Source: an uncultured bacterium
GTDB lineage: Bacteria; Patescibacteriota; Minisyncoccia; Phycocordibacterales; CAIRYW01
DNA length: 64,000 bases
Direction of reading: 5' to 3'
Assembly (NCBI GenBank): GCA_963766885.1
Contig: CAVYBO010000002.1
Span: 528,606 to 592,605, forward strand
Part shown: one piece after another, positions 32,711-64,000 of the stretch
How positions within the stretch are numbered: position 1 is the first letter of the stretch
How the letters are laid out: every line of letters begins with the position of its first letter
Translations under genes and position numbers: made by a program
The notes under the pieces: model-generated
Databases searched by the model: none
Seen by the model: only the letters and a program-made list of their open reading frames with translations
Told to the model about the DNA's origin: nothing

Positions 32711-32720
32711 AAATAACACA

Positions 32721-34553
32721 ATGAAAATAAACTGTAGAAAAATTTTTAATTTTTTCTCTCCGATATTAATATTTTCAATGGTTTTTTATCTTCCTCTCAG
32801 TGCTTATGCCCAAGCCACACAAGCCCAGGTTCAACAGTATTCGAGTGCGCTTTCACAATACGGAACATCAGTGCAAGGCGGCACAGGCACAAGCCCAACT
32901 TATGGACAATCTGGGACAGCAGGACTGGCAGGTGCGGCGGGTTCTTGTTCAATCGGCACACTAGGTGCAGCGTTAATTACCAGCACGATAACAAAAGCTA
33001 TTGGCGCTGTGGCCGGTTTGGGACAAACAGCAACTGGTGCCGGAACAAGCGCAGTCACAAGCTCAACTGGCCAAGCTGTTCCAATCCAATACGCCACAGG
33101 GGATGAAATGGTTTTTCAAGCCATAAGCAAAAACCTCAAGGACCAAGGTCAAAGAAATTTTTCCTTAAATGCAAGCGATGGTTCTTTCAACGGAATTGTG
33201 GCTCAAGGAGCTTCGCTTGGATTTAATCTACCGAGCCTCAACGCCATTGGATTTTGCATAGTAAATGAGATTCTTGCCTATATTACCCAGTCAACAATTC
33301 AGTGGATTAACAGCGGTTTTCAAGGCAGTCCTGTTTTTGTGTCAAATACCGGAGAGTTCTTGCAAGGAGTAGAAGACCAAGAACTTGGAAATTTTGTGAA
33401 CGGTATTGCAGAGGGAACCCTCGGAATAAATCTCTGCCAACCTTTTAAGGTGCAGGTGCTTTTGGGCACCCTTGGTGTTGGCGGAAGAGGCCAGCAAAAT
33501 CCATTAAGCTGCACATTAAACGCTATAAAAAATAACTACAATCAATTTGTGGGAGGCAACTGGGGTTCGGGCGGAATGCAAGGTTGGTTTGAGCTTACTC
33601 AAGGAGCAAATAATCCATACGGAGCTACAATGATCGCTCAGCAGCAAGCCCTACTCCAAGTCAACAAACAGCAAAATAATCTTTTGATTAATCTTAATTG
33701 GGCAAAGGGCTATCACGACTTTACATATTGTCAGGATAAAAGCACCCCTAACACCACAACAGGCAAATGCTCCAACGGAGCAGCGCCGGTTACAGGCACT
33801 CCAGGCGATTATATTCAAAACCAAGTCAACGCCAGAGCAGCTGCTCCAGAACAACGTCTGAATATTGCTACAGACTTTGATCAATTAGTTTCAGCGTTAG
33901 TTAATGAGCTGATACAAATCGCTATAAATAAAACACTGGAATCTGCAAATCCTAATACTCCTTACTACACTCCTCCAACTTACAACAACACATCATCAGG
34001 CGGCGGATCTTCTGGTGGTTCGCCAGTAACATATACTCAACCTGTTGTATCTTGTTCTGGTAGTGATGTATATACGACAAACAGTACTGCAAGCAGTACC
34101 TCAACAATAATATGGTCTGCTTCTGCTACAGGCGGAAGCGGCAACTTCGTATATTATTGGAACGGAGACGCTTATGGAAATTCTCAAAATGTTACAAATA
34201 CATACAGCACATCTGGAACAAAAAATGCCACACTAACTGTATATGACGCTACTTCTGGACAGACATCCTTGGCTACTTGTTCTGCTGTTGTATATGGCGG
34301 CAGCACTAGCAGCATTACCGCTTCTTGCTCAGCATACCCATCAGGAAACGCTATAACCTGGATTGCCGACACCACGGGCGGAAGCGGCAACTACACATAC
34401 TCTTGGAGCGGAGACGCTTACGGATCTTATTCAAGCGTTACAAACACATACGCCACTAGTACAAGTGGAACAAAAAGCGGAACAGTGACCGTCTCTGACG
34501 CGTCTTCTTCAAGCACTCCAGCCACAGCTAGCTGCTCTGCAAGCATTAGTTAG
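32721..34553 (+). CDS. Secreted Gly/Ser-rich protein with two C-terminal PKD-like ~85-aa domains
   Basis: Signal peptide. The C-terminal repeats containing TGGSGN(F/Y)(V/T)Y(Y/S)W(N/S)GDAYG and bounding Cys residues resemble the repeat unit of the 61023 gene. Confidence 0.5.
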   Translation: MKINCRKIFNFFSPILIFSMVFYLPLSAYAQATQAQVQQYSSALSQYGTSVQGGTGTSPTYGQSGTAGLAGAAGSCSIGTLGAALITSTITKAIGAVAGLGQTATGAGTSAVTSSTGQAVPIQYATGDEMVFQAISKNLKDQGQRNFSLNASDGSFNGIVAQGASLGFNLPSLNAIGFCIVNEILAYITQSTIQWINSGFQGSPVFVSNTGEFLQGVEDQELGNFVNGIAEGTLGINLCQPFKVQVLLGTLGVGGRGQQNPLSCTLNAIKNNYNQFVGGNWGSGGMQGWFELTQGANNPYGATMIAQQQALLQVNKQQNNLLINLNWAKGYHDFTYCQDKSTPNTTTGKCSNGAAPVTGTPGDYIQNQVNARAAAPEQRLNIATDFDQLVSALVNELIQIAINKTLESANPNTPYYTPPTYNNTSSGGGSSGGSPVTYTQPVVSCSGSDVYTTNSTASSTSTIIWSASATGGSGNFVYYWNGDAYGNSQNVTNTYSTSGTKNATLTVYDATSGQTSLATCSAVVYGGSTSSITASCSAYPSGNAITWIADTTGGSGNYTYSWSGDAYGSYSSVTNTYATSTSGTKSGTVTVSDASSSSTPATASCSASIS

Positions 34554-37399: not shown

Positions 37400-37400
37400 A

Positions 37401-38102: not shown

Positions 38103-38135
38103 CTACACATAGGAATTTTCTGCTATAATTTATAT

Positions 38136-38627
38136 ATGCAGTATCAAGTTCCTCAATTCATAGAAATAGAAGACAAGATTTTTGGTCCTCTGACCTTTAA
38201 GCAATTTGCATATGTGGCCGGAGGCGGCGCAATGTGCTTCTTGGCTTGGAGATTTTTGCCTGTTTTCATAAGTATTTTTATCATAGTTCCTGTTGGCGGC
38301 TTTGCCTTAGCATTAGCATTCTATAAAGTGAACAACAGGCCTTTTGTTTTTATGGTTGAGTCGGCTATAAAATATTTTTTCAACAAAAAACTTTATATCT
38401 GGCAAAAAGAGAAGAAAAAACAGGTAGAAAAAACTGCAGCTGTGGCAGCAAATAAAGTTTATATACCCAAACTTTCCGAATCTAAACTCAAAGAGCTGAC
38501 ATGGAGCTTGGATATTAATGATACAATTTATTCAAAGTCCCAAAAATCGCCAATCATTAACGGGGATAGTAAAGAAGTTTCGAGTTTCAAAGGACTAAGC
38601 GAAGATATGAAAAAACAATGGCAATAA
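38136..38627 (+). CDS. PrgI-family (VirB3-like) small membrane protein (tentative)
   Basis: VPQFIEIEDKIFGPLTFKQF followed by two TM helices. Positioned directly upstream of VirB4, as PrgI/VirB3 usually is. Confidence 0.45.
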   Translation: MQYQVPQFIEIEDKIFGPLTFKQFAYVAGGGAMCFLAWRFLPVFISIFIIVPVGGFALALAFYKVNNRPFVFMVESAIKYFFNKKLYIWQKEKKKQVEKTAAVAANKVYIPKLSESKLKELTWSLDINDTIYSKSQKSPIINGDSKEVSSFKGLSEDMKKQWQ

Positions 38628-39259
38628 GTTCTCAAGATTTTGTTCCAATAAAAGAAGTAAGGGAAGGCGTCGTGATTATGAAAGACGGCTCCCTTAGGAA
38701 TATCATTATGACTTCTTCAATAAACTTCGCCCTCAAAAGTGAAGACGAGCAAGAAGCGATTATAATCCAATTCCAAAATTTCTTGAATACTCTGAATTTT
38801 TCAATTCAGATTTTTATGCAATCCCGTCGTTTGGATATTAGACCGTACATTGCCCTTTTGGAAAATGTTCTCAAAGAACAGAGGAACGACTTGCTTAAAA
38901 TCCAAACCAGAGAATATATCGCTTTTATCAAGACGTTCACCGAGCAGGTAAACGTTATGAGCAAGAGTTTTTTTATCGTAGTGTCTTATGAACCAGCCAT
39001 GCTAAAAATGAAAAAAAACCCTGTAAGTAAATTCATTGGGTCTAAAAAAGAAGAGGATAAAGTGCAGAGTAATGACAATTTTGAAGAACAGCGGGAACAG
39101 CTTCTTGAAAGAGTGGAAGTGGTTATTCAAGGGCTGACTAGACTGGGTGTACGGTCTTTGACTCTCGGCACCGAGGAAGTCATTGAGCTTTATTACAAGC
39201 TTTTCAACCCAGGTGAAACAGAGAAGCCTATAAATATAAACCAAGTAGTAGAACATTAA
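38618..39259 (+). CDS. VirB4-family ATPase, N-terminal fragment
   Basis: DFVPIKEVREGVVIMKDGSLRNIIMTSSINFALKSEDEQEAIIIQFQNFLNTL resembles the N-terminus of Gram-positive VirB4 homologues (TrsE/Orf16-type). Stops 2 nt before the next ORF. Confidence 0.55.
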   Translation: MAISSQDFVPIKEVREGVVIMKDGSLRNIIMTSSINFALKSEDEQEAIIIQFQNFLNTLNFSIQIFMQSRRLDIRPYIALLENVLKEQRNDLLKIQTREYIAFIKTFTEQVNVMSKSFFIVVSYEPAMLKMKKNPVSKFIGSKKEEDKVQSNDNFEEQREQLLERVEVVIQGLTRLGVRSLTLGTEEVIELYYKLFNPGETEKPININQVVEH

Positions 39260-39261
39260 TT

Positions 39262-41085
39262 ATGTCAGTATTAGATAAATTATTTAATAGAAAACAAGAT
39301 TCACAATTGCGGCCCGCAACAGCAATATTGCCGGAAGAAATTTACGAATCGGCGGTATTGGAACTCAAAGACGTCATCGCTCCATCAGCCATCAAAGTAT
39401 CTCCTCGAGAACTCAATCTGGGCGACAAAATAGCCAGAACATTTTTTGTTATTTCTTATCCAAGATTTTTGACCGAAAGCTGGTTCGCGCCGATAATCAA
39501 TCTGGATAAAATTTTTGATGTTTCAATATTCATTCATCCGATAGACACAGCTCAAATCCTTAGAACATTTCAAAAAAAAGTGGCAGAAGTCCAAAGCCAG
39601 ATACATATGCGGGAAGCAAAGGGCTTGGTCAGAGACCCTGTGCTAGACACCGCATATCAAGACCTGGAACAACTTCGAGACCAGCTGCAACAAGCCCAAG
39701 AAAAAATATTTGATGTTGGACTTTACTTCAGTATTTATGGCAGCACCGATGAAGAATTGGACAAGATCGAATCAGAAATAAAGTCCATCCTTGAATCAAA
39801 GCTTGTTTACGTAAAGCCTGCGCTATTTCAGCAAGAACAGGGCTTCAGAAGCGTTATGCCATTTTGTAATGATGAGCTCAACGTCAATTCCAAATTAAAT
39901 TCTTCTCCGCTTTCAAGCGTTTTCCCGTTTATTTCTTTTGACCTGACAAGCGACAAAGGTATTCTCTACGGCGTCAATCGTCATAATTCCAGCCTTATTC
40001 TTTTTGACAGATTCTCTCTTGAAAATTACAACTCAGTAACGTTCGCCAAAGCGGGAAGCGGCAAAAGCTACTGCACCAAACTTGAAATTCTGCGTAGTCT
40101 GATGTTTGACATAGATGTTATTGTTATTGACCCGGAAAAAGAATACGAATATTTATCCGAAGCCACAGGCGGAAGATATTTTAATATTTCCTTGAATTCC
40201 GAGCACCATATCAATCCTTTTGACCTGCCGATTCCAAGAGAAGACGAATCTCCTGCAGATGTTTTGAGAGGAAATATTATTAACCTTGTGGGACTCTTTA
40301 GAATAATGCTTGGCGGCATCACTCCTGAAGAAGACTCGATCATAGACAAAGCAATTACTGAAACATACGCTCTCAAAGACATTACCCCAGAATCAGATTT
40401 TGGATCAATTGAGCCGCCGCTTCTTTCTGACTTTGAATTGGTGCTCGCAGGAATGGAAGGCGGTGATTCGCTTGTACAACGCCTTGAAAAATACACCAAA
40501 GGCACATGGGCGGGATTTATCAACAAGCCGTCAAACGTGGACATCAACAAAAAATTCGTGGTGTTTTCACTGCGAGATATGGAAGACGAGCTCAAACCTG
40601 TGGCAATGTATATCGTCACTCACTATATATGGAACGCTATCAGGCAGAAATTAAAGAAAAGAATTCTGGTTATTGATGAGGCCTGGTGGATGATGAAGTC
40701 CGAAGACACAGCGTCGTTCCTGCTTGGGCTTGCTAAACGATGCAGAAAATATTTTCTTGGGCTTGCCACAATCACCCAAGACGTGGACGACTTTCTCAAA
40801 TCTCCATACGGCTTGCCGATTATCACAAACTCATCCATTCAGATTTTGCTCAAGCAATCCCCGTCTTCAATAGACAACGTGCAGCATACTTTTAACTTAA
40901 CAGATGAAGAAAAATATCTTTTACTTGAATCAGATGTCGGTGAAGGAATATTTTTTGCTGGCCTCAAGCACGTGGCAATCAAAATCATTGCTTCATACAC
41001 CGAAGACCAAATCATCACTTCTGACCCATCTCAAGTTTTGGCAATTCAACAGGCCAAGAAAGATGCTGAGGAGGATAAGTTATAA
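39262..41085 (+). CDS. VirB4/TrsE/PrgJ-family type IV secretion ATPase, main part
   Basis: Walker A FAKAGSGKSYCTKLEI, Walker B VLVIDEAWWMM and CagE/TrbE/VirB domain features. Confidence 0.8.
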   Translation: MSVLDKLFNRKQDSQLRPATAILPEEIYESAVLELKDVIAPSAIKVSPRELNLGDKIARTFFVISYPRFLTESWFAPIINLDKIFDVSIFIHPIDTAQILRTFQKKVAEVQSQIHMREAKGLVRDPVLDTAYQDLEQLRDQLQQAQEKIFDVGLYFSIYGSTDEELDKIESEIKSILESKLVYVKPALFQQEQGFRSVMPFCNDELNVNSKLNSSPLSSVFPFISFDLTSDKGILYGVNRHNSSLILFDRFSLENYNSVTFAKAGSGKSYCTKLEILRSLMFDIDVIVIDPEKEYEYLSEATGGRYFNISLNSEHHINPFDLPIPREDESPADVLRGNIINLVGLFRIMLGGITPEEDSIIDKAITETYALKDITPESDFGSIEPPLLSDFELVLAGMEGGDSLVQRLEKYTKGTWAGFINKPSNVDINKKFVVFSLRDMEDELKPVAMYIVTHYIWNAIRQKLKKRILVIDEAWWMMKSEDTASFLLGLAKRCRKYFLGLATITQDVDDFLKSPYGLPIITNSSIQILLKQSPSSIDNVQHTFNLTDEEKYLLLESDVGEGIFFAGLKHVAIKIIASYTEDQIITSDPSQVLAIQQAKKDAEEDKL

Positions 41086-41086
41086 A

Positions 41087-41659
41087 ATGGATAAAAAAGA
41101 AAGAATTTCAAAAGGCACCAGAAAACTAATGATTGGCTTTACGTTAACCCTGGATGCAATAAAGTTTTTGCTTGCAATTCTAGTAATAGGCGAAATTGCC
41201 AATAGGCTTATAAATATTTTTGCGGAAATAATACTTTGGATATGGTTTAAATCCAAGGGAGTAAGTTTTTATGGGTCAAGAAATGCAGTCAGGGCTGGCA
41301 CTACTTTTTTTATCGGAACAACACTTGGAGAAGTACCTGTGGTTGGGGACTGCTTATTAACTGTTGAAACAGCTTTGATACTTTATATGATAAAATTGGA
41401 AGATAAGACAGGACTTTCAACACAAAAATTAATACAGGATCCGGTCCAGATGAATAAAATTGTCCGATACGGCCAAAAAATTAATAATAAAATACAAAAA
41501 ACAGGCAACCCTCAACAGCAAAAAATTATAGCCCAAAGGGAACATTTAGCAAAACGAAACGCGGATAATCAGCCTAAAAACATACTCACTCCAGCAAATT
41601 TAAGTAAAAATAATGTCGAAAATAATTCAACACAAGAAAATCTTCAAGCCGCTGCTTAG
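41087..41659 (+). CDS. Hypothetical membrane protein
   Basis: Start taken at MDKKER immediately after the VirB4 stop. 2-3 TM helices. Confidence 0.4.
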   Translation: MDKKERISKGTRKLMIGFTLTLDAIKFLLAILVIGEIANRLINIFAEIILWIWFKSKGVSFYGSRNAVRAGTTFFIGTTLGEVPVVGDCLLTVETALILYMIKLEDKTGLSTQKLIQDPVQMNKIVRYGQKINNKIQKTGNPQQQKIIAQREHLAKRNADNQPKNILTPANLSKNNVENNSTQENLQAAA

Positions 41660-42692
41660 CGCTTTGGGTCTTATATGCATATTTGGATTTGCATTTGAAG
41701 TAAAAGCTCAATTGGACACTTCTCCTTCTATTCCTTCCGAGATACCAGAAATCCAAGAACAAGTTTACGTTGACCAAGCTCCGGGAAATCCAAATCCGGG
41801 AGACACGGTGAAAATAAGTTTGGAAGCCTACGGCACAGACTTGAACTCCGCAAATGTTACTTGGAAAATTAACGGCACCGTTGCCAAAGAAGGCAGGGGG
41901 ATTGCAGAGCTTGATGTTGTTGCCGGAGATTCTGGCACCAAAAAAACCGTAGATGTATATATCGACCCTCCAAATGGCCCAGAGATACAAAAAACAGTAG
42001 TCATAGAGCCGGAGCAACTGGATATTGTATGGGAAGCCAAAGCATATACACCTCCGTTTTATAAAGGCAAAGCCTTGTATGCTCCGCAAGAAAAAGTTGT
42101 CATTGCTGCTTTTCCAAACTTTGAAGCAGATGGTTCAGTTGGAGTTGACCCAAGCCACATCTCATACAGTTGGACAAACAATCTTGACGCTGTGCCGCAA
42201 TATTCCGGTTACGGATCAAACTATATGCTTTTCCAAGGGCCGATTGTCCAAGATGATCAATATATATATGTAACAGCAACAGCCGATTCTGGAGCTAGCG
42301 CTGAAGCCAATATAGACATGCTTCCAACGCTCCCAAATGTTTTAGTTTACGAAGACAATCCGCTTTATGGAGTATTATTCAACAAAGCACTGCCGGCAAA
42401 CTTTAGTCTTCAAGACAGCCAGACCACATTGGCGGCTTATCCATATTACTTTGGATTTACATCACAGACTGATCCAAATGCAGAATATCAGTGGACAATT
42501 AATGGACAAAATATTTCTGCTTCGCAAAGTCAGGCTACAATGGTATTTACCAACTCTTCTGGACAATCCGGAAGCTCTGAGGTAGGTATTGATGTACAGA
42601 ATGCAAACAATTTTTTGGAAGAAGCAACCCAGAATCTAAATATAAATTTTAATGCAACGAGCAATCAACAGAATACAGGTGTATCATTTTAA
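41613..42692 (+). CDS. Secreted or membrane-anchored hypothetical protein
   Basis: Signal/anchor LLSALGLICIFGFAFEVKAQ. No family recognised. Confidence 0.4.
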   Translation: MSKIIQHKKIFKPLLSALGLICIFGFAFEVKAQLDTSPSIPSEIPEIQEQVYVDQAPGNPNPGDTVKISLEAYGTDLNSANVTWKINGTVAKEGRGIAELDVVAGDSGTKKTVDVYIDPPNGPEIQKTVVIEPEQLDIVWEAKAYTPPFYKGKALYAPQEKVVIAAFPNFEADGSVGVDPSHISYSWTNNLDAVPQYSGYGSNYMLFQGPIVQDDQYIYVTATADSGASAEANIDMLPTLPNVLVYEDNPLYGVLFNKALPANFSLQDSQTTLAAYPYYFGFTSQTDPNAEYQWTINGQNISASQSQATMVFTNSSGQSGSSEVGIDVQNANNFLEEATQNLNINFNATSNQQNTGVSF

Positions 42693-42696
42693 TTAA

Positions 42697-43911
42697 ATGC
42701 AAAATATTAAAAACCAAAAAAATAGACTCTTCAAAATAATAATATTTTTTATTGTTTTAACTTCTTCTGCAGGTTTGGTAAAAGCCCAACAAACAGCACA
42801 ACCGTACACTCAACTTGCTCCTATTACTTTGCCGTCTGCTTTGCCAGGTAGCAGCAACCAAATTACAAGCAGCAACTTAGGACAATATTTTTCTCAGATG
42901 TATCAATTAGGGGTAGGAGTGGCTACGGCATTAGCAGTACTAATGATAATTCTTGGAGGAGTTGAGTATGTGACCACAGACGCAATTGGTGGCAAAGAAG
43001 AGGGAAAAACAAAAGTTCAGAATGCAATATTAGGACTTTTACTAGCTTTAGGCTCGTGGATAATTCTCAATACAATTAATCCCGCTTTCTTGAATACCAA
43101 CTTGCAGATTTCAAATGTCACTTTGAATTGTACTAATCCTGCTGGCTGCGGGCCTGGATTTGGAAATTCTAATGGGTTAAGTACAGGAAATGGTGGGGAA
43201 GGAGCAGGAACAAACAACAGCACAGTGGGTGCTTTAACACCTAGTCAACTTGCAATTAATAGTATGACACCAGCTCAACAACAAGCTTATGAGCAGGCTC
43301 TTTATGATCAAGCCATGGGTAATCCTCTAACACCAGATGATCTAGCCGCAATGTCAGAATACAACACTGCACTTACCGCTGATAGTTCCAGTTCCAATGC
43401 CACTGGTGGAGTCCCAAATAATGGAGGAAACATTGCGCAAAATTCTTTAGCAGGATCAACTTTTCCAGCAGGTAGTGGTGTTACAAATGCGCAGGTGTTA
43501 AATTTAATAAATCAATCAGGACTTACAGGACTAAGTCCATCCGATGCTTCTAATTATTTTCCAAATGGACAAATCACAGCTCAGGATTATGAGAGTCTTC
43601 TTGCAAGTGTGGCAGACAGTGAATCTGGATTTAACCCACAAGATAATACTAATGGCAAAACTGTTGATTATATTGACCCGAATACTGGTCAGCCGGTGTA
43701 CTCGGAAGGTCTTTTTTCACTTAGTACAACAGATCCAGCAGTAACAGCTTTGGCAAACCAATATGGAATTACCCCTCAACAAGTTATAAGCAATCCCCTA
43801 TATAATACTCAAGCTGCAATAAATATTTTAAAAACTCAAATACAAAAAACCGGATCTATAGCTGGTAATGCTGGCATACATTATTGGGGACCGCTTTATA
43901 AGGGAGAGTAG
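42697..43911 (+). CDS. VirB2/TrbC-like membrane domain fused to SLT-type lytic transglycosylase (VirB1-like)
   Basis: N-terminal signal plus two hydrophobic segments (YQLGVGVATALAVLMIILGGVEYV...AILGLLLALGSWIILN). C-terminal ESGFNPQDNTNG...GLFSLS corresponds to the SLT E-S-x-F-N-P ... GLMQ motifs. Confidence 0.5.
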   Translation: MQNIKNQKNRLFKIIIFFIVLTSSAGLVKAQQTAQPYTQLAPITLPSALPGSSNQITSSNLGQYFSQMYQLGVGVATALAVLMIILGGVEYVTTDAIGGKEEGKTKVQNAILGLLLALGSWIILNTINPAFLNTNLQISNVTLNCTNPAGCGPGFGNSNGLSTGNGGEGAGTNNSTVGALTPSQLAINSMTPAQQQAYEQALYDQAMGNPLTPDDLAAMSEYNTALTADSSSSNATGGVPNNGGNIAQNSLAGSTFPAGSGVTNAQVLNLINQSGLTGLSPSDASNYFPNGQITAQDYESLLASVADSESGFNPQDNTNGKTVDYIDPNTGQPVYSEGLFSLSTTDPAVTALANQYGITPQQVISNPLYNTQAAINILKTQIQKTGSIAGNAGIHYWGPLYKGE

Positions 43912-43951
43912 AGATTATAATAATCCAATTAAATTTGTATAAAATATAAAA

Positions 43952-45394
43952 ATGTCCAGAAAACAAATATTCATAATATTCTCACTAATCCTGCTTATTT
44001 TGATTTTTGTTTTTATTTATATTTTTGCTTTGCTCCAAAAAAACAATGGCCAATACGATCTAAGCGACGGATTTTCAAATTCTGTCAGAGGTTTTCTTCC
44101 TTTTGGCAATCTGGCTCCGTCAAATGTCGTAAGTAATAATCAAAATTTAAACCCAAATAGCAGTCCATCAAATATTTCTTCCACAACTCTACCAGAAATT
44201 ATGCCCCGTCTTCGAGAAATTTCTTCTGTGCCTGTGGCCGGATCTGAAATCGTAGCAAGGGAAAGAGATGTTGTTGTAAACAAAGTTAAAACAAAAGTTT
44301 ATGATCAATACATCAGATTTGTGGACAGGGCAACGGGCCATGTTTTTGAAACCAAAAGTGATAGCCCTGCTATCACAGAAATTTCCGATACCACAATACC
44401 AAAAGTTTATGAAGTGGATTTTTCTTCAAATCCGAATGTGGCGATTTTCAGATCGTTGGATGAATCCACAGATACTATTCTTTCTGAAGTGGCCACTCTA
44501 GCAAGTTCAACTTTACCAATACAAGCCACTTCCACAGCTTTTGAAATAAATTCTACCTCAACAACAACCAGCACTTCAACAGTTGAAGTTTATACTGGCA
44601 CTCCTTACAAAACTGAAATCTCATATCTTCCTAACAATATTGCAAATCTTGCCGTGGGTCCTAGCTTGCAAAAAATGATTTATTCACTGCCAAATGCTAG
44701 TGGAGGAAACATACTAGTTTCAAATATAGACGGCTCCAAACCTTTGGTGGCATTTACTTCTGCTCTCAGCGGCTGGCTGCTTAGCTGGCCAAACTCCAAA
44801 TATACGGTTTTGACTACCAAGCCATCCGGCTTTGCCAACGGCATCTCGCTTCTGTTAAATCTTTCGAGCGGCTCTTTAAGCAAAATTGCTTCTGGCAATG
44901 GCCTGACAACTCTTGTTTCTCCAGATTTAAGCACAGCTTTAGTCGGGAAAGGTGGATTAACAATGGATTTGAGTGCGGAGAACTTAAAAGACAGCAGTTC
45001 TTTAGGACTCTCTCTTCAAACTCTTCCTGAAAAATGTGTCTGGGCAAATACTGAAAACTCAATTGCATATTGTGCTATTCCTAACATAGTGCCTAAAGGC
45101 ACTTACCCAGATGATTGGTATCAAGGATTAATTTCATTTACAGATAATATTTGGGAAATAAATACCTCAACAGGAGTAAGTAATATAGTTGCCGCACTTT
45201 CGGAAGATTACAATCAAAACATCGACGCTATCAACCTGCAAATTTCTTCAGATGATTCTTATCTTACTTTTATGAACAAAGATGATCTGACTCTCTGGGG
45301 ATACTGGCTTCGCCTTGCAACTTCAACTCAAGCAACATCCACCACAGCTTCAACCAACAAATCAAATAGTGCCTCCACTTCTGCCACCTTCTAA
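43952..45394 (+). CDS. Membrane-anchored Ser/Thr-rich hypothetical protein
   Basis: N-terminal TM helix IFIIFSLILLILIFVFIYIFALL. Last gene of the co-directional cluster. Confidence 0.4.
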   Translation: MSRKQIFIIFSLILLILIFVFIYIFALLQKNNGQYDLSDGFSNSVRGFLPFGNLAPSNVVSNNQNLNPNSSPSNISSTTLPEIMPRLREISSVPVAGSEIVARERDVVVNKVKTKVYDQYIRFVDRATGHVFETKSDSPAITEISDTTIPKVYEVDFSSNPNVAIFRSLDESTDTILSEVATLASSTLPIQATSTAFEINSTSTTTSTSTVEVYTGTPYKTEISYLPNNIANLAVGPSLQKMIYSLPNASGGNILVSNIDGSKPLVAFTSALSGWLLSWPNSKYTVLTTKPSGFANGISLLLNLSSGSLSKIASGNGLTTLVSPDLSTALVGKGGLTMDLSAENLKDSSSLGLSLQTLPEKCVWANTENSIAYCAIPNIVPKGTYPDDWYQGLISFTDNIWEINTSTGVSNIVAALSEDYNQNIDAINLQISSDDSYLTFMNKDDLTLWGYWLRLATSTQATSTTASTNKSNSASTSATF

Positions 45395-47282: not shown

Positions 47283-48635
47283 ATGCAAGACCTTGAAGAA
47301 AAAGAATCAACTTGGAAAAAAGTTTTATCTGGTGTAGAACTTGAACTCTCCAAGCCTAATTTTACTACATGGTTTAAAGGCACATCACTGGTCAAAATAG
47401 ACGATGGAATGGTTTTTGTCGGTGTACCGAACGCTTTTGTAAGAGATTGGCTTTTAAATAAGTATCACAAAATCATTTTGAAGTCTTTAAGAGACATTTC
47501 TTATGAGGTCAGGGGTGTAGAATACATTATAGTCAAAGAAAATCCCATTCAAAAAGCGGAAGTTAGGCCTGTTTTTAAAATTTCTACGGCAAGTGAATTG
47601 CCGCTTGCAGATTTGTATATCAATAAGGACTACAACCTAAATCCTAGATACACTTTTGACAATTTCGTCATTGGTCCGTTTAATGAGCTTGCATATGCGG
47701 CTGCACAGGCGGTGATAAAAAAACTGGCGTCTTATAATCCTTTGTTTTTCTATGGAAGTACCGGGCGAGGAAAAACCCATCTTATCCAAGCCATCGGCAA
47801 CCACATCAAAAAAGATTTTCCTTCGACAAAAATCTTTTATATCAGCTCGGATCGTTTTGTTCAGGAATACACAACCGCAGTTCAAGACGGAAAAATCAAT
47901 ACTTTCAAGGAAAAATATCGCAAATATGATGTTTTTATAGTGGATGACATACAGTTTCTTTCCAAAAAAGAAAAAACTCAGGAAGAATTATTCCATCTGT
48001 TCAACTTTTTTCACGAGAACAACAAGCAAATCGTCTTTTCTTCAGACCAGCATCCAAATTACATACCAGATCTTGAAGAAAGAATAAAATCTCGCCTGGT
48101 TTCAGGAATGATTATAGATATTGGTGCTCCGGACTTTGAATCCCGAGCTGCTATTGTCCGAAACAAAGCCAAGTTAAGAAATTTTAACCTGCCTGACGAG
48201 ATTATTGACTTTCTTGCCGGCTCAATAGAAGGGAATATAAGGGAATTGGAGGGTATATTAAACACCATTATCTGCCAAACAGAACTCAAAAACAGAGACT
48301 TGGATCTTACTGAGGTAAAAAATCTAATCAAAGACTCCGCCAAGCCGCAAAAAACCGTTTCGGTGAAAGATGTTTTGAAAGTAATATCAAAATATTACGA
48401 TGTGGAAGAAAGCTCTCTTATAGACAAGACTAGAAAGAAAGAAGTGGTAAAACCTCGCCAAGTGGCAATGTATATTCTGCGCGAAGACTACAATATTTCC
48501 TTTCCTTCAATCGGAGCGAAGCTAGGGGGCAGAGACCATACCACAGTTATTCACTCTTGTGAGAAGGTAAAAACCGATATAAAAAATAATCCTGGTCTTG
48601 CTCGCGAGGTTACAGAAATCCGGACAATGCTGTGA
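47283..48635 (+). CDS. dnaA: Chromosomal replication initiator protein DnaA
   Basis: AAA+ Walker A GSTGRGKTHL and C-terminal DNA-binding domain ending ...IRTML. Confidence 0.9.
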   Translation: MQDLEEKESTWKKVLSGVELELSKPNFTTWFKGTSLVKIDDGMVFVGVPNAFVRDWLLNKYHKIILKSLRDISYEVRGVEYIIVKENPIQKAEVRPVFKISTASELPLADLYINKDYNLNPRYTFDNFVIGPFNELAYAAAQAVIKKLASYNPLFFYGSTGRGKTHLIQAIGNHIKKDFPSTKIFYISSDRFVQEYTTAVQDGKINTFKEKYRKYDVFIVDDIQFLSKKEKTQEELFHLFNFFHENNKQIVFSSDQHPNYIPDLEERIKSRLVSGMIIDIGAPDFESRAAIVRNKAKLRNFNLPDEIIDFLAGSIEGNIRELEGILNTIICQTELKNRDLDLTEVKNLIKDSAKPQKTVSVKDVLKVISKYYDVEESSLIDKTRKKEVVKPRQVAMYILREDYNISFPSIGAKLGGRDHTTVIHSCEKVKTDIKNNPGLAREVTEIRTML

Positions 48636-48639
48636 ACAA

Positions 48640-48853
48640 CATGTTGGTAAGGCTCGGGTTTATTTGTTGATAATTTGTTAGGGAGTTTGCAATAAAAAAA
48701 TATTTTAAAAAGTAACAAACATGAAAACCCAATTTTCCACATCCTCAATTATCAAAAAGGTAAATAAAAACCTTTTAAACAAAGGTTTTTTAAAGTTTTC
48801 CCCACTGTCCACATACCTTTATTAATCTTATTTATTTATATTAAATATATTAT
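48640..48853. promoter_or_regulatory. Putative oriC region (dnaA-dnaN intergenic)
   Basis: DnaA-box-like 9-mers ttttccaca (48733-48741) and tgtccaca (48805-48812), plus an AT-only stretch tattaatcttatttatttatattaaatatattat that could serve as a DNA-unwinding element. Confidence 0.45.
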
Positions 48854-49954
48854 ATGAGAATAGAGTTACCAAAAGAAAAATTTACAGAAGCAGTGGCAAG
48901 TGCTGAAAGAATTACAAGTAAGAACGCATCGCTGAAATCTTTGTCTTGTATTTTGATAGAATTTTCTGAGAAAGAGGTTGTGGTTAAAGCCACCAACTTA
49001 GACGTTGGTGTTGAGTTCAGGGTTCCGGCAAAATCCAGCGGTGAAGGAATGTTTTTGATAAATGGAACCTCTCTCAGATCTTTTTTAACCAACTCGCCTG
49101 TTTCCAAAGAGGTTGTGCTTGAAAAGAAAGAAAATATTTTGGAAATAAAATCAGGATTAAGCGAAGGAGAACTTGTTCTTGAATCGTCAGAAGAATTTCC
49201 AATTATTCCAAAGGTTGAAAATGCTACAGAATTTGAAATTTTAGCTGAAGAGCTTGTTTCTGGTATCAAGTCTGTATTTTGGAGCGCTTCAATGTCGCAA
49301 ATAAAGCCTGAATTATCAAGTGTTTATATTTATGAAGACAAGGAAGATTTGGTTTTTGTGGCTACTGATTCATTTCGCCTTGCCGAAAAAAGAATCAAGA
49401 CTAAAAAAACCAAAAATATCAGCTCAGTTTTGATTCCTTTTAGAAATATTTCAGAGGTTCTAAGGATTTTTGACGGACTTAAAGGCTCGGTTGCGGTCAA
49501 GACCAACAAGAACCAGATATCTTTCCAATTAGGGGGTATTTATGCCACTTCACGCCTCATTGATGGTATCTTCCCAGACTACAAACAGATTATTCCAAAA
49601 GAATTTTCGACCAAGGCTATTATTCTGAAGGAAGAACTTTCAAGCGCTCTTCGCCTAACAGGTTCGTTTGCCGATTCTTTCAATCAAATTGAGTTTAAAG
49701 TAACTCCATCCAAAGAAAAGCTGACTATCAAATCAAGCAACAAAGGCACAGGAGTTGTTTCTGAGGAAATCAAAGGTTCTTTTGAAGGCGAAGAGGTTCA
49801 GCTTTCTTTTAATCACAAATACATCACTGAAGCTCTACCCTCGATTAATTCTTCAAGTGTAAGTGTTTCCCTAAATTCTCAAGGCAAGCCAATGATAATT
49901 CGTGAAAGTTCCAATCCAAGCTTTCTGTATCTTGTTATGCCTATGAACAAATAA
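48854..49954 (+). CDS. dnaN: DNA polymerase III beta sliding clamp
   Basis: 366 aa, three-domain clamp pattern, directly downstream of dnaA. Confidence 0.85.
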   Translation: MRIELPKEKFTEAVASAERITSKNASLKSLSCILIEFSEKEVVVKATNLDVGVEFRVPAKSSGEGMFLINGTSLRSFLTNSPVSKEVVLEKKENILEIKSGLSEGELVLESSEEFPIIPKVENATEFEILAEELVSGIKSVFWSASMSQIKPELSSVYIYEDKEDLVFVATDSFRLAEKRIKTKKTKNISSVLIPFRNISEVLRIFDGLKGSVAVKTNKNQISFQLGGIYATSRLIDGIFPDYKQIIPKEFSTKAIILKEELSSALRLTGSFADSFNQIEFKVTPSKEKLTIKSSNKGTGVVSEEIKGSFEGEEVQLSFNHKYITEALPSINSSSVSVSLNSQGKPMIIRESSNPSFLYLVMPMNK

Positions 49955-56827: not shown

Positions 56828-57109
56828 TTAAAACAAATACGAATGAGATCCTAGCTCAACTAAGATAAGAATCATTTTCTCCTTTTCAATCTTATATACA
56901 AGCAAAACATTTGCCCTGATATGGCATTCTCTAAATCCTGCATATTCTCCTTGAAGCGCATGGTCAGTATATTTTGGATTAAGTTTCAAACCAGCAGCGA
57001 GTGTGTTTATTACAGAACTTAAATCCAAAAGAATCTTTTTGCCGCTGATTCCGGAACTAATTCTTTTTACACTTTTCAAAAAAGATTTGCTTTTATAAAT
57101 CCGATACAT
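56828..57109 (-). CDS. Type II toxin, YafQ/RelE family
   Basis: C-terminal ...FRECHIRANVLLVYKIEKEKMILILVELGSHSYLF matches the YafQ-type motif. Confidence 0.6.
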   Translation of the reverse strand: MYRIYKSKSFLKSVKRISSGISGKKILLDLSSVINTLAAGLKLNPKYTDHALQGEYAGFRECHIRANVLLVYKIEKEKMILILVELGSHSYLF

Positions 57110-57114
57110 ATTTT

Positions 57115-57366
57115 CTACAAAAGTTCATGGAACATTTCTTCGGCCGATCCATAACTTTTTGTTTTTAAAGCTTCTTTTACTTCCTTGTTCCATTTTGCTC
57201 GTATAGCCCTTCTTTGGGCGCTTGGAGTGAAAGGCAGCCCTTCTTCTATTACAACCTGGTTTAGGAAAATTTTTATGGCGGTTGACATATCTATGCCCAA
57301 AGAGGACAAAGTTTTGTTTGCTTTTCTCTTTATGCTTTCTTCAATTCTTATGTTTATATTGGTCAT
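57115..57366 (-). CDS. Type II antitoxin, DinJ/RelB family
   Basis: MTNINIRIEESIKRKANKTLSSLGIDMSTAIKIFLNQVV is a ribbon-helix-helix antitoxin pattern. Lies 6 nt upstream of the toxin. Confidence 0.6.
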   Translation of the reverse strand: MTNINIRIEESIKRKANKTLSSLGIDMSTAIKIFLNQVVIEEGLPFTPSAQRRAIRAKWNKEVKEALKTKSYGSAEEMFHELL

Positions 57367-59145: not shown

Positions 59146-60870
59146 TTATTCCACTCCTTCTGTTTGTGGGGCGTTGTATAGAAAATTCTCTGGAAGCTCA
59201 AAAGACAGATCAACTGTGCCTTCAAGTTCTGTAAGAGAAGTAATACCGTCCGCAACTTTCAGGAGTCCGTCTTGGGCAAGAGAGAGAATGTTTTGTGGTT
59301 CTGCTCCGTCTGCAATTTCTCTTTCACTTGGGTTTTCTTCGATTAGTTTTTCAATTGCACGATCTATCATAATGGCTTCATAAATTCCAATTCTGCCTTT
59401 GTAGCCGGTATTATTGCATTCTTTACAGCCAACTTCTTGATAGACAAAATCTCTCTGTGATACTTTTTGCCCCTTTTTTTCAATTTTTGCCCAGATGATT
59501 TCCAAAGCAGCTTTTTTATCTGCTGGAATTGGAATTTGTTTTTTACATACGTTGCAAAGTCTTCGCAAAAGTCTTTGGGCTATTGCCAAGTTGATTGCTG
59601 AAACAAGAATCTTTGGATTTACTCCTAAATCCATAAGGCGGGGGAATGCGCCAGCGGCGTTGTTGGTGTGAAGAGTGGAAAAAACTAAGTGTCCTGTCAG
59701 CGCGGCTTGCACAGCAATTTCCGCTGTTTCATTATCTCGAATTTCACCAACCATGATTACGTCAGGATCTTGCCGGAGGGTGGAGCGAAGTCCTGAAGCA
59801 AATGTGTATCCTTTTTCAACATCAACTTGAGTCTGCACAATTCCTTCCAGGTGATATTCAACAGGATCTTCAATAGTAATTATTTTTACTTCCGGAGTGT
59901 GCACTCTTCGAAGAAAGGCGTAAAGAGTGGTGGTTTTTCCGCTTCCTGTCGGTCCAGTAGTTAGGATCATTCCATTTGGCTTTGAAATTTCTCTGATAAA
60001 AAGATCCAAAAGTTTTGGTGGAATACCAAGTTCCTTGAGAGGAAACTGAATTGATTTTGGATTTAGAATTCTAAGCACTATTGATTCTCCAAAAGCTCCG
60101 GGCAAAAGAGAAGTTCTGATTTCAATGTCGTCATTAAAAATTTTGACGCTAAATCTGCCGTCTTGAGCGTTGTTTTTTATATTCAACTTCAATCCTGAAA
60201 GAAGTTTTATTCTTGAAAGCAGAAGTTGGTATGTTTCTTTGTCAAACTGTAGAAGTTCAACAAGAGCGCCATCTAAACGGTATCTTAAGCGGGTGAATTT
60301 TTCTTCTGGTTCAATATGTATGTCAGATGCTGCTGTTGAAATGCTTCCGGCGATTATGATTGCCAAAATTTTTGAAACTCTGTAAACCTTGTTGGTGTCA
60401 ACGTTTTCGAGGATAAGAGTTTTGATATCATTGAGGGACTGTACTTTATTCAAAAAACCTTCAATTTCATCATTGGAAATATCCAAGGTTCCGGCTTTTG
60501 TTTCTGTAGCAAAAGAAAGATCCTTATATCTACTCCAGGCTTTTTCCAAACTCTGTCTAGAAACCATATAAGGCTCAAGAGTATAATCTTTTTCTTCAAG
60601 TTTATTCATCATTTCAATAGTGCTTTCATTTTTTGGGGCGCGCATAGCTACAAAAAGTTTCTTTCCAACTATTTTGAAAGATGCCATTTCTCTTGCCCGC
60701 GCTTCCGCCTCAGGAATTATTCTTAGGGCATCCGTATCAATTGGAATACCTGAAAGATCAGCGTATTTAACACTATATTTTTGAGAAAGAATTTCAGCTG
60801 ATTTTTCTTCTTCATCCTCAAGAAGTTCTTTAAGCTGTCTATTTTGCTTGTCCTCATCAAATTTAACCAC
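59146..60870 (-). CDS. GspE/PilB-family type II secretion / type IV pilus assembly ATPase
   Basis: Walker A TGPTGSGKTTTL, Asp and His boxes, and the tetracysteine motif (CNVCKK...CKECNNTGY). Confidence 0.8.
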   Translation of the reverse strand: MVKFDEDKQNRQLKELLEDEEEKSAEILSQKYSVKYADLSGIPIDTDALRIIPEAEARAREMASFKIVGKKLFVAMRAPKNESTIEMMNKLEEKDYTLEPYMVSRQSLEKAWSRYKDLSFATETKAGTLDISNDEIEGFLNKVQSLNDIKTLILENVDTNKVYRVSKILAIIIAGSISTAASDIHIEPEEKFTRLRYRLDGALVELLQFDKETYQLLLSRIKLLSGLKLNIKNNAQDGRFSVKIFNDDIEIRTSLLPGAFGESIVLRILNPKSIQFPLKELGIPPKLLDLFIREISKPNGMILTTGPTGSGKTTTLYAFLRRVHTPEVKIITIEDPVEYHLEGIVQTQVDVEKGYTFASGLRSTLRQDPDVIMVGEIRDNETAEIAVQAALTGHLVFSTLHTNNAAGAFPRLMDLGVNPKILVSAINLAIAQRLLRRLCNVCKKQIPIPADKKAALEIIWAKIEKKGQKVSQRDFVYQEVGCKECNNTGYKGRIGIYEAIMIDRAIEKLIEENPSEREIADGAEPQNILSLAQDGLLKVADGITSLTELEGTVDLSFELPENFLYNAPQTEGVE

Positions 60871-61022
60871 CTATATATACTAACGTTTTTATTTCAATCT
60901 GTCTTTACTAAATAGCTATAAAAAATATGCAATAACTTTTTTATCTAGTATAGTTCTTGACAATATTTATAAATAGTGTATAATAGCCTAATTAGTAAGA
61001 AAGGTTAGTAAAAAGCGAATAT

Positions 61023-64000
61023 ATGCAACATAAATCAAGACAAGTAAATACGTTTCTGGTCGCAATTCTAATCATTTTTTGTATTTCCTTTCCTATAGTT
61101 ACATTTGCTCAGTACGACGATGGTTCAGATGATTCTGGTTCTACATACGATTCAGGAAACTACGGATCAACATATGACTCTGGAGATTCTGGTTCTACAT
61201 ACGATTCAGGAAACTACGGATCAACATATGACTCTGGAGATTCTGGTTCTACATACGATTCAGGAAACTACGGATCAACATATGACTCTGGAGATTCTGG
61301 TTCTACATACGATTCAGGAAACTACGGATCAACATATGACTCTGGAGATTCTGGTTCTACATACGATTCAGGAAACTACGGATCAACATATGACTCTGGA
61401 GATTCTGGTTCTACATACGATTCAGGAAACTACGGATCAACATATGACTCTGGAGATTCTGGTTCTACATACGATTCAGGAAACTACGGATCAACATATG
61501 ACTCTGGAGATTCTGGTTCTACATACGATTCAGGAAACTACGGATCAACATATGACTCTGGAGATTCTGGTTCTACATACGATTCAGGAAACTACGGATC
61601 AACATATGACTCTGGAGATTCTGGTTCTACATACGATTCAGGAAACTACGGATCAACATATGACTCTGGAGATTCTGGTTCTACATACGATTCAGGAAAC
61701 TATTCTTCAGATGAATATTACATTACAGGGACAGGATCTGAAGAATATATATATTCAACAACACCCACTTATTCTTTCATACCATATTATTCAACCACTG
61801 TTGTAAATAATAATTGTACTGGTTCTAGTTGTAATACAACCACAAAAACCCCTCCACCACTTACTGGTTTTTGTTTAGGATATCCAAGTTCTGTAATGAC
61901 TGGCCAATCTGTAGATTGGTCTGTTACTGCGTCTGGAAGCAAGGGAGATTATGCATACTCATGGAGCGGAGCTGTCAGTGGATCTGATAAAAGTTTATCA
62001 ACATCATATGATACTGCCGGTATCAAAACTGCTGATGTTGTGATTTCTTCTGGCGGTTCAAGTTTTAGTACAAATTGTTCTGTAAAAGTTACCGCGCCCC
62101 CTCCAGTCAAAGCATATTGTATTGCAAACCCATCAAGCACCAAGATCGGTGATGAAGTAACCTTCAGAGTAGCTCCATCTGGCGGAAGAGGAGGAGCAGG
62201 ATACACATACTCATGGAGCGGAGCGGTTAGCGGAAACAACATCAGTGAATCAAATACTTTCTCTTCTTCTGGAACAAAGACTGCTGTAGTGAAAGTGACT
62301 TCTGGATCTGACAGTGTAGAAGCACAGTGCTCAACAAACATCCAACCAAACCAAGTCATCCCTCCAGTCAAAGCATATTGTATTGCAAACCCATCAAGCA
62401 CCAAGATCGGTGATGAAGTAACCTTCAGAGTAGCTCCATCTGGCGGAAGAGGAGGAGCAGGATACACATACTCATGGAGCGGAGCGGTTAGCGGAAACAA
62501 CATCAGTGAATCAAATACTTTCTCTTCTTCTGGAACAAAGACTGCTGTAGTGAAAGTGACTTCTGGATCTGACAGTGTAGAAGCACAGTGCTCAACAAAC
62601 ATCCAACCAAACCAAGTCATCCCTCCAGTCAAAGCATATTGTATTGCAAACCCATCAAGCACCAAGATCGGTGATGAAGTAACCTTCAGAGTAGCTCCAT
62701 CTGGCGGAAGAGGAGGAGCAGGATACACATACTCATGGAGCGGAGCGGTTAGCGGAAACAACATCAGTGAATCAAATACTTTCTCTTCTTCTGGAACAAA
62801 GACTGCTGTAGTGAAAGTGACTTCTGGATCTGACAGTGTAGAAGCACAGTGCTCAACAAACATCCAACCAAACCAAGTCATCCCTCCAGTCAAAGCATAT
62901 TGTATTGCAAACCCATCAAGCACCAAGATCGGTGATGAAGTAACCTTCAGAGTAGCTCCATCTGGCGGAAGAGGAGGAGCAGGATACACATACTCATGGA
63001 GCGGAGCGGTTAGCGGAAACAACATCAGTGAATCAAATACTTTCTCTTCTTCTGGAACAAAGACTGCTGTAGTGAAAGTGACTTCTGGATCTGACAGTGT
63101 AGAAGCACAGTGCTCAACAAACATCCAACCAAACCAAGTCATCCCTCCAGTCAAAGCATATTGTATTGCAAACCCATCAAGCACCAAGATCGGTGATGAA
63201 GTAACCTTCAGAGTAGCTCCATCTGGCGGAAGAGGAGGAGCAGGATACACATACTCATGGAGCGGAGCGGTTAGCGGAAACAACATCAGTGAATCAAATA
63301 CTTTCTCTTCTTCTGGAACAAAGACTGCTGTAGTGAAAGTGACTTCTGGATCTGACAGTGTAGAAGCACAGTGCTCAACAAACATCCAACCAAACCAAGT
63401 CATCCCTCCAGTCAAAGCATATTGTATTGCAAACCCATCAAGCACCAAGATCGGTGATGAAGTAACCTTCAGAGTAGCTCCATCTGGCGGAAGAGGAGGA
63501 GCAGGATACACATACTCATGGAGCGGAGCGGTTAGCGGAAACAACATCAGTGAATCAAATACTTTCTCTTCTTCTGGAACAAAGACTGCTGTAGTGAAAG
63601 TGACTTCTGGATCTGACAGTGTAGAAGCACAGTGCTCAACAAACATCCAACCAAACCAAGTCATCCCTCCAGTCAAAGCATATTGTATTGCAAACCCATC
63701 AAGCACCAAGATCGGTGATGAAGTAACCTTCAGAGTAGCTCCATCTGGCGGAAGAGGAGGAGCAGGATACACATACTCATGGAGCGGAGCGGTTAGCGGA
63801 AACAACATCAGTGAATCAAATACTTTCTCTTCTTCTGGAACAAAGACTGCTGTAGTGAAAGTGACTTCTGGATCTGACAGTGTAGAAGCACAGTGCTCAA
63901 CAAACATCCAACCAAACCAAGTCATCCCTCCAGTCAAAGCATATTGTATTGCAAACCCATCAAGCACCAAGATCGGTGATGAAGTAACCTTCAGAGTAGC
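61023..64000 (+). CDS. Giant secreted tandem-repeat surface protein (3' end outside window)
   Basis: ATG at 61023, signal peptide MQHKSRQVNTFLVAILIIFCISFPIVTFAQ, then (SGSTYDSGNYGSTYDSGD)x10, then a linker and at least 8 PKD-like ~87-aa domains. No stop in frame to the window end. Absent from the ORF track because it has no stop. Confidence 0.6.
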   Translation, partial: MQHKSRQVNTFLVAILIIFCISFPIVTFAQYDDGSDDSGSTYDSGNYGSTYDSGDSGSTYDSGNYGSTYDSGDSGSTYDSGNYGSTYDSGDSGSTYDSGNYGSTYDSGDSGSTYDSGNYGSTYDSGDSGSTYDSGNYGSTYDSGDSGSTYDSGNYGSTYDSGDSGSTYDSGNYGSTYDSGDSGSTYDSGNYGSTYDSGDSGSTYDSGNYGSTYDSGDSGSTYDSGNYSSDEYYITGTGSEEYIYSTTPTYSFIPYYSTTVVNNNCTGSSCNTTTKTPPPLTGFCLGYPSSVMTGQSVDWSVTASGSKGDYAYSWSGAVSGSDKSLSTSYDTAGIKTADVVISSGGSSFSTNCSVKVTAPPPVKAYCIANPSSTKIGDEVTFRVAPSGGRGGAGYTYSWSGAVSGNNISESNTFSSSGTKTAVVKVTSGSDSVEAQCSTNIQPNQVIPPVKAYCIANPSSTKIGDEVTFRVAPSGGRGGAGYTYSWSGAVSGNNISESNTFSSSGTKTAVVKVTSGSDSVEAQCSTNIQPNQVIPPVKAYCIANPSSTKIGDEVTFRVAPSGGRGGAGYTYSWSGAVSGNNISESNTFSSSGTKTAVVKVTSGSDSVEAQCSTNIQPNQVIPPVKAYCIANPSSTKIGDEVTFRVAPSGGRGGAGYTYSWSGAVSGNNISESNTFSSSGTKTAVVKVTSGSDSVEAQCSTNIQPNQVIPPVKAYCIANPSSTKIGDEVTFRVAPSGGRGGAGYTYSWSGAVSGNNISESNTFSSSGTKTAVVKVTSGSDSVEAQCSTNIQPNQVIPPVKAYCIANPSSTKIGDEVTFRVAPSGGRGGAGYTYSWSGAVSGNNISESNTFSSSGTKTAVVKVTSGSDSVEAQCSTNIQPNQVIPPVKAYCIANPSSTKIGDEVTFRVAPSGGRGGAGYTYSWSGAVSGNNISESNTFSSSGTKTAVVKVTSGSDSVEAQCSTNIQPNQVIPPVKAYCIANPSSTKIGDEVTFRV
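61131..61705 (+). repeat. Ten perfect 54-bp tandem repeats (18-aa units) plus a partial unit
   Basis: Unit gattctggttctacatacgattcaggaaactacggatcaacatatgactctgga starts at 61131, 61185, ... 61617. Confidence 0.9.
62101..64000 (+). repeat. At least seven identical 261-bp tandem repeats (87-aa PKD-like domain), continuing past the window end
   Basis: Unit starts at 62101, 62362, 62623, 62884, 63145, 63406, 63667 and 63928 with exact 261-bp period. Confidence 0.9.

Follow-up and report, generated by a model that had tools for sequence, protein, structure and literature searches.

What kind of protein is encoded at the far end of this 64,000-nucleotide stretch of DNA (hereafter the window; contig CAVYBO010000002.1, positions 528,606 to 592,605), and how did its gene come to hold two tandem arrays in which the copies are identical to each other? 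The gene starts at position 61023 on the + strand of an uncultured bacterium of the Patescibacteriota and is still open where the window ends. The most probable answer, to which we assign a probability of roughly 0.65, is that it encodes a Sec-exported, length-variable surface fibril of a protein family found in bacteria of the Parcubacteria/Paceibacteria type within the candidate phyla radiation (CPR), and that domain 2 of its stalk has recently been amplified. The visible parts of the gene are these:

61023..64000, + strand: open reading frame (ORF) of the surface protein, open at its 3' end and continuing past the window
61023..61109, + strand: Sec-type signal peptide, residues 1-29, read from the sequence; the orthologue N-termini are equivalent
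61131-61702, + strand: perfect 54-bp tandem array, 10.6 copies, 100% identical (Tandem Repeats Finder, TRF, and direct comparison)
61703..61850, + strand: Tyr/Thr-rich linker with C-x4-C, NNNCTGSSCNTT, containing Cys265 and Cys270, read from the sequence
61851..62096, + strand: first PKD-like domain, unique, 82 residues, Cys284 to Cys352, 43% identity to the amplified unit
62099..64000, + strand: perfect 261-bp tandem array, domain-2 type (TRF: period 261, 7.3 copies, 100% matches, no indels)

The identity of the 261-bp array begins exactly at 62099. By direct count, the array consists of seven full units (62099-63925) followed by 75 bases, i.e., 7.29 copies, with 0 mismatches in 1,902 bases. 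The original prediction of "at least 7.5 exact copies" was thus right about the exact 261-bp repeats, but not about the count, which is 7.29. Translation of the unit bears out the proposed ~87-aa Cys-bounded domain: each unit encodes one Cys-bounded PKD-like domain of 87 residues, and the junctions between units fall inside the Pro-rich interdomain linker (..NQVI|PPVKAYC..). The DNA of the first domain resembles the 261-bp unit over just one 29-bp patch. We also noticed that the sequence CCCTCCA, which includes the Pro-Pro codons of the linker, is present at 61849-61855 and at 62099-62105, that is, where the first domain and each of the amplified units start; the initial duplication could have arisen from this microhomology.

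The same gene carries the 54-bp array, which had been overlooked earlier. Its unit encodes 18 residues, (DSGSTYDSG NYGSTYDSG)n, with a 9-residue sub-period, and the array forms the core of a 234-residue low-complexity region (approximately residues 30-264) in which nearly all residues are S, G, Y, D, T or N. There are no other sizeable tandem arrays in the 64-kb window, and the best long-period array across 1.25 Mb of related loci reaches 87% identity over 4 copies, so that chance is not an issue. It is also evident that both units are multiples of three (261 = 3x87 and 54 = 3x18). A change in copy number would therefore alter the length of the protein and would not switch the gene on or off. 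The term "contingency locus", which calls for a frame shift or altered promoter spacing, does not suit a gene in which both units are in frame, and the promoter region contains no repeat tract.

The comparison that carries the argument for recent amplification is that with three positional orthologues, P0089, P0053 and P0075 (in the loci L081, L082 and L084, respectively). The surface gene lies next to a divergently oriented gene:

59146..60870, - strand: PilB-type (T2SSE) ATPase gene (Pfam T2SSE, E=2e-121)

The gene order in the window, PBP1, TyrRS, RuvC, YebC, RuvB, PilB and then the divergent surface gene, is the same in L081 and L082, where PilB is 72-78% identical to that of the window, and the 10-kb contig L084 carries RuvC, YebC, RuvB and PilB along with the gene. 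The adjacency to pilB is kept in all three loci. On the other side of the surface gene, L082 and L084 have a gene for an unknown protein of 315-370 aa and then tsaE. The orthologues are proteins of 620-722 aa with exactly four PKD-like domains each, and "giant" is too strong a word for the 992 aa visible here. The best match of the amplified unit in P0075, P0053 and P0089 is in every case their domain 2. Similarly, the unique first domain has its best match in domain 1 of P0089 and of another family member, P0054; domain 1 is not top-scoring in P0053 and P0075. None of the three orthologous genes contains a 261-bp array, and their repeats are diverged in DNA. This comparison suggests that the ancestral gene had four diverged stalk domains, the second of which was amplified in the genome studied here. 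Recent expansion or gene conversion, as originally proposed, seems the natural reading of the identical units, given that each orthologue has one copy of the corresponding domain. The domain was absent from the 80 GTDB loci to which PilB led (best-aligned segment at most 62% identical).

The low-complexity region has a different history. It spans 234 residues here versus 144-219 residues in the three orthologues. The L081 orthologue shows a homologous 54-bp period in this region, but one copy matches the next at just 64-76%; for the orthologues taken together, the diverged period has 64-79% matches. Across relatives, the repeat sequences of the Tyr-rich region differ and its composition is kept. 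In the adjoining linker, P0054 has the identical CTGSSC, and all orthologues have C-x4-C. Judged from these sequences, the 54-bp array of this genome appears to have been homogenised to a single unit, its length staying close to the ancestral one. Matches of the low-complexity region to tail-fibre families of PHROG were rejected as compositional.

Could the copy number or the perfect identity have been produced by an assembler that looped or by a consensus that was homogenised in polishing? Both arrays are 100% identical (572 bp in the 54-bp array and at least 1.9 kb in the 261-bp array), which is a possible effect of polishing and thus weighs against the proposed amplification. Arrays of this length are normally beyond sizing from short reads, in agreement with what has been reported for other repeat proteins (PMC8201768, PMC6851277). 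Moreover, the 261-bp array reaches the window end, the orthologues from other assemblies show diverged repeats only, and we found no independent copy of the array sequence in public collections. However, assemblers that work from short reads tend to collapse repeats of this kind or to break at them instead of expanding them, the 54-bp array is bordered on both sides by unique sequence within the contig, the reading frame is kept through the array, and the boundaries between units lie in interdomain linkers. Family members from other assemblies also have nearly identical domain copies that arose independently: in P0034 there are four superunits with 100% identity at the protein level, and in the P0047 gene two domain copies that are not adjacent share 99.6% identity over 237 bp. 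An artefact is unlikely on balance. The copy numbers are nevertheless trustworthy only if long reads were used, and polishing can erase small differences between copies.

We then asked what fold the amplified unit has. An AlphaFold2 model of a single unit, for which an alignment of 26 family sequences was the input and one domain was modelled, is a seven-strand beta-sandwich (pLDDT 93.4, pTM 0.80), with the conserved terminal Cys residues on its first and last strands. The top matches in a Foldseek search against the PDB are PKD domains (1l0q, 4jrw, 4tn9, 4aqo and 2y72; TM 0.66-0.75); the best structural match, 1l0q, is an archaeal surface-layer protein, and PKD domains of ColG/ColH are also among the top (TM about 0.7). 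By sequence, the domain profile matches the Ig domain of the phage T5 pb10 decoration protein (E=1e-6) and the PKD domain of ColH (E about 3e-3). Among 14 family domains scanned with Pfam, 11 match PKD_4 (best E=5.5e-9), 7 match PKD and 7 match SprB (best E=1.9e-5). Whole relatives lie above the PKD_4 cut-off (P0054 with 44.6 bits and P0032 with 111 bits). The cut-off of SprB (PF13573) is passed by P0054 and P0075, the match spanning only the GG-x-G-x-YTYSW half of the domain, and the window's own unit does not match the SprB model. The PKD-like nature of the unit, which had been suspected from the letters, is thus supported by structure prediction and fold search, which agree, and by relatives that pass the PKD_4 threshold. 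The repeated unit is therefore a divergent PKD/Ig-like domain with the signature C...GG-x-G-x-YTYSWSG...C. It shares with PKD domains (PF00801/PF18911) the fold (TM about 0.7), a length of ~85 residues, the tandem use in extracellular proteins and the position of its aromatic-Trp motif YTYSWSG, which occupies the canonical WDFGDG region. It differs from them in that the unit falls below the Pfam cut-off and the subfamily adds a Cys near each end as well as GG-x-G-x-YTYSW. When the 992-aa fragment was scanned as a whole, its Pfam matches (among them DUF7800, RsgI_N, Glyco_hydro_25 and Collagen) contained 0 significant stretches; they are additive noise, because eight identical units sum up.

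The frame itself is well defined at its 5' end. From the ATG at 61023, it is open through 992 codons to the window end at 64000, where a stop has still not occurred; an in-frame stop lies at 60996-60998, and there is no alternative start between that stop and the ATG. The N-terminus MQH... aligns with MQN... of the orthologues P0089 and P0053, which supports the choice of start. Upstream of it we found the following site:

60957..60984, + strand: sigma-70-like promoter site TTGACA-16-TATAAT, 12/12 consensus positions, recognised by consensus match alone

This promoter-like site lies 38 nt 5' of the ATG and is the sole 12/12 match within 60500-64000. The predicted signal peptide starts with MQHKSRQVN; its n-region is basic (K4, R6), its core is hydrophobic, and cleavage is predicted at VTFA|Q. 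A 3'-truncated gene with a signal peptide, missed by the ORF listing, was therefore correctly recognised in the original prediction. A stop shortly beyond the window, there regarded as a refutation, would refute nothing, as a stop is expected there; if the orthologue plan holds, the full protein would have at least about 1,300 aa. A pilin role, considered for a gene beside pilB, was rejected since a prepilin-type signal is absent from the N-terminus.

The gene is masked in the ORF listing, as had been pointed out, by an ORF on the other strand:

61949..63970, - strand: antisense ORF, 673 aa, from the ORF listing

The reverse frame of a single 261-bp unit happens to have no stop, and the antisense ORF is spurious because the repeats multiply this one unit. 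Stop-free antisense runs extend to at most 62-165 codons in the three orthologous genes versus 683 codons here. The codon-usage score does not separate the two frames (0.163 for sense versus 0.144 for antisense); the sense frame is chosen on the basis of homology, fold and the non-conservation of the antisense frame in orthologues.

The protein belongs to a large family. An exhaustive phmmer search places the domain in at least 1,814 representative clusters of proteins (E<=1e-3), 128 of which reach E<=1e-30; many are multi-domain. A complete plan is common to P0054, P0089, P0053, P0075 and P0001: a signal peptide, Tyr-rich short repeats, Cys-containing linkers, 2-5 Cys-bounded PKD-like domains, and a C-terminal motif with a helix. 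The most frequent number of domains in 109 complete family members is 4, and 89% of them have 3-5 domains. The C-terminal motif of the family is (S/G)(G/S)V(Y/F)LS(Q/E)(V/I)PYTG, after which come a hydrophobic helix that is conserved and a cluster of K/R; in the three positional orthologues, the ending is SGVFLS[QE]IPYTG with a transmembrane (TM) helix and a basic tail. Of the 257 relatives retrieved, 111 have the tripartite C-terminus of motif, TM helix and basic cluster, and curated NCBIfam/Pfam anchor models do not match the C-terminal signal of the relatives. Eight short homologues (P0014, P0016-P0018, P0020, P0021, P0023 and P0024), mostly from short contigs of about 1-6 kb, end instead in (I/Y)NF(N/D)PxFEEF, with the stop right after it. 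The ending could be a C-terminal motif of its own; alternatively, the stop could be subject to readthrough or to recoding under an alternative genetic code.

In three paralogues (P0047, P0051 and P0074), a sortase gene lies directly upstream. We observed a conserved locus in three CPR genomes, in the order GyrB, CARDB-like protein, sortase, family member and ThrRS:

L083, 5207-8592: GyrB-CARDB-sortase-PKD-ThrRS locus
L085, 7184-11243: GyrB-CARDB-sortase-PKD-ThrRS locus
L086, 7198-10994: GyrB-CARDB-sortase-PKD-ThrRS locus

The family member in these sortase-bearing loci ends with LS.[IV]P.TG, a TM helix and basic residues. Because a sortase adjoins three paralogues, a sortase-type signal is the most economical reading of xPxTG, TM helix and basic residues, and the C-terminal signal looks like a CPR sortase sorting signal that is absent from curated models.

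These results can be put together as follows. From tip to cell, the protein would consist of a disordered Tyr/Ser/Gly/Asp region of ~200 residues with 9-residue repeats, forming the distal, exposed tip, then a C-x4-C knot, a stalk of PKD/Ig domains and an anchor. The anchor, LS[QE][VI]PYTG with a membrane helix and a basic cluster, would most likely be a sortase-type cell-wall sorting signal, or at least a membrane anchor. The Pro-rich linkers NQVIPPVK suggest an extended stalk, which may be rod-like, and a disulfide between the conserved terminal Cys residues, Cys8 and Cys78 of the unit, could stabilise each PKD-like domain. The second stalk domain could have been amplified via unequal homologous recombination or replication slippage, with junctions in the Pro-rich linker, giving at least 7.3 base-perfect copies versus one in the orthologues, which have four domains in all. 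Copy gain or loss would keep the frame and change the stalk in steps of 87 residues and the tip in steps of 18 residues; if copy number is still varying, each change would alter how far the tip projects from the cell. The fibril would probably serve attachment to a host cell or surface, and an adhesive role is plausible, as conjecture, in an episymbiotic lineage. In its most specific form, namely a host-attachment fibril of an episymbiotic CPR bacterium whose reach is tuned on short timescales via identical PKD-like domains, with a sticky, disordered, Tyr-rich tip and a CPR-specific LSQ[VI]PYTG sortase anchor, the proposal is doubtful and is put forward tentatively.

Several observations weigh against the surface-fibril interpretation, in addition to the perfect identity of both arrays. 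The C-terminus of the window protein lies past 64000, and its anchor is deduced from orthologues alone. Neither the 64-kb window nor any of the three orthologous loci (L081, L082 and L084) contains a sortase gene. In many relatives, the membrane helix is followed by a tail that is long or conserved; such tails are unusual for a cleaved sortase signal, and a retained membrane anchor therefore fits equally well. A single unit scores below the cut-off of Pfam PKD_4 (E=0.014, 15.9 bits versus a cut-off of 27), and no ligand-binding or adhesive domain is recognisable in the protein by Pfam/NCBIfam scans. Finally, the copy difference is seen between genomes whose PilB proteins are 72-78% identical, and not within a population. 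No strain-level relatives were found with a 30-mer of the unit in metagenome contigs, a 42-mer in genome contigs, a protein-seeded metagenome scan or exact-protein look-ups of PilB and RuvB.

It is conceivable that the protein is a static component of the envelope, such as an S-layer-like protein or wall spacer and not an adhesin, and that the amplification was a neutral, transient accident. The archaeal surface-layer protein as best structural match and the lack of a recognisable adhesive domain would fit this, as would the conserved housekeeping neighbourhood of the gene in four genomes, which suggests a core function, and the retention of exactly four domains in the three orthologues. On the other hand, two independent arrays in one gene have both been freshly homogenised, domains have been duplicated repeatedly and independently across the family, and in the tip it is the composition and not the sequence that is conserved, which is typical of exposed, fast-evolving interaction regions. 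We consider a static role quite unlikely for these reasons.

The domain is also present elsewhere in the window, in a secreted protein of a type IV secretion system (T4SS)-like locus:

34062..34550, + strand: two paralogous PKD-like domains, C-terminus of the secreted protein 32721-34553 (BLASTP 36% identity, E=5e-16)

That divergent copies of the domain end this protein, beside T4SS genes, had been noted correctly. The 610-aa protein has a signal peptide, lacks a Tyr-rich region and ends without an anchor; its N-terminal 430 residues match nothing in Pfam, PDB sequences or solved structures. The T4SS-like cluster extends over 31796-45394 and includes a PrgI-like gene (38136-38627), a VirB4/TraC-like ATPase gene (39262-41085) and a T4SS-pilin+SLT gene (42697-43911), as well as genes for large proteins without a Pfam match at 34640-37399 (919 aa) and 43952-45394. 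The claim that the shared domain links the two loci as one family goes too far, as the similarity is limited to a module found in at least 1,814 clusters and the remainder cannot be aligned. The module is widely used in secreted proteins of these bacteria, the loci are 26 kb apart and the conserved partner of the surface gene is pilB and not a T4SS gene; thus, sharing the domain does not link the two loci functionally. That both proteins form one adhesin or surface-display system of the T4SS-like locus is highly improbable: the 32721-34553 protein does have two domains of the same subfamily and lies beside the PrgI, VirB4-like and T4SS-pilin/SLT genes, but dnaA, dnaN and housekeeping genes lie between the loci, the rest of both proteins is unrelated, and the conserved neighbour in three other genomes is pilB/ruvB.

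As for the remainder of the window, dnaA and dnaN are adjacent (47283-49954), and the replication origin is probably near 46.6-47.3 kb; this adjacency indicates that the window is chromosomal and not a mobile element. PilB, RuvB and the other neighbouring genes, which include a class A PBP, assign it to a CPR genome of the Parcubacteria/Paceibacteria type. A RelB antitoxin / YafQ toxin pair is located between yebC and ruvB (56828-57366, - strand), a position that has no called gene in L082 and L084 and a 99-aa gene without a Pfam match in L081. A GC-rich island at 8001-10000 (50% versus about 38% elsewhere), near tRNA genes, contains ORFs that overlap on both strands, 8512-9945 (- strand, 477 aa) and 8983-9906 (+ strand, 307 aa), both without a Pfam match; the island may have been horizontally acquired. 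No Rfam families besides tRNAs were found in the window.

Surface proteins with identical in-frame domain repeats are already well known, and the surface fibril proposed here is a CPR-lineage example. The closest comparison is with the Periscope Proteins, variable-length surface proteins of Gram-positive bacteria such as SasG, Rib and Sgo_0707 (Whelan et al. 2021, PMC8201768). Like these, the protein is secreted and has long, near-identical, in-frame DNA repeats in which one unit corresponds to one folded domain, Ig-like in most cases, so that recombination would alter the length of the stalk; at least 7.3 copies here stand against 1 copy of that domain in the three positional orthologues, whose sequences predict an xPxTG-type C-terminal anchor. 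Unlike these, it comes from a CPR/Parcubacteria-type bacterium, has a stalk of Cys-bounded PKD-like domains and ends distally in a Tyr/Ser/Gly/Asp low-complexity region and not in a folded ligand-binding domain. Rod behaviour and strain-level variation are properties of the Periscope Proteins, whereas our case is known from the sequence of one genome and its orthologues. In the alpha C and Rib proteins of Group B Streptococcus, nucleotide-identical, domain-sized, in-frame repeats change in copy number through recombination. The repeats here are likewise base-identical, domain-sized, in frame and in a surface protein; however, the folds are unrelated (Rib versus PKD-like), and immune escape drives the variation in the pathogens, with no such driver known here.

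Within the CPR, a hypervariable PTD-repeat surface protein has been described from a Gracilibacterium, with a 9-nt unit encoding a tripeptide and synonymous hypervariation (Sieber et al. 2019, PMC6851277). Both are extracellular repeat proteins of CPR bacteria with a perfect short array that is expected to slip and is hard to assemble, but the units here are 54 and 261 bp and base-identical, and the long one encodes a folded domain. The tip region also recalls the SD repeats of staphylococcal Sdr/Clf proteins in that both are acidic, Ser/Asp-rich, low-complexity tandem repeats in a surface protein of the sortase type, here a predicted one. The SD repeats adjoin the wall anchor and serve as a wall-spanning spacer, whereas the region here sits at the N-terminus, which would be the distal end of a C-terminally anchored protein, and is rich in Tyr with a 9-residue period.

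The ways in which CPR/Patescibacteria attach themselves to hosts or surfaces are poorly understood. The locus offers a clean comparative case of very recent amplification of domain 2, in a conserved and uncharacterised CPR family with an uncurated LSQ[VI]PYTG-type signal, and this surface family is easily recognised from its Tyr-rich tip, its stalk of Cys-bounded PKD domains and its anchor of the LSQ[VI]PYTG type. If its copy number varies, the gene would extend the Periscope idea from cultured pathogens to uncultured ultra-small bacteria, and the protein would be a candidate for host interaction. If it is indeed a host-attachment fibril, length-variable surface proteins may be part of the adaptation of ultra-small bacteria to different hosts.

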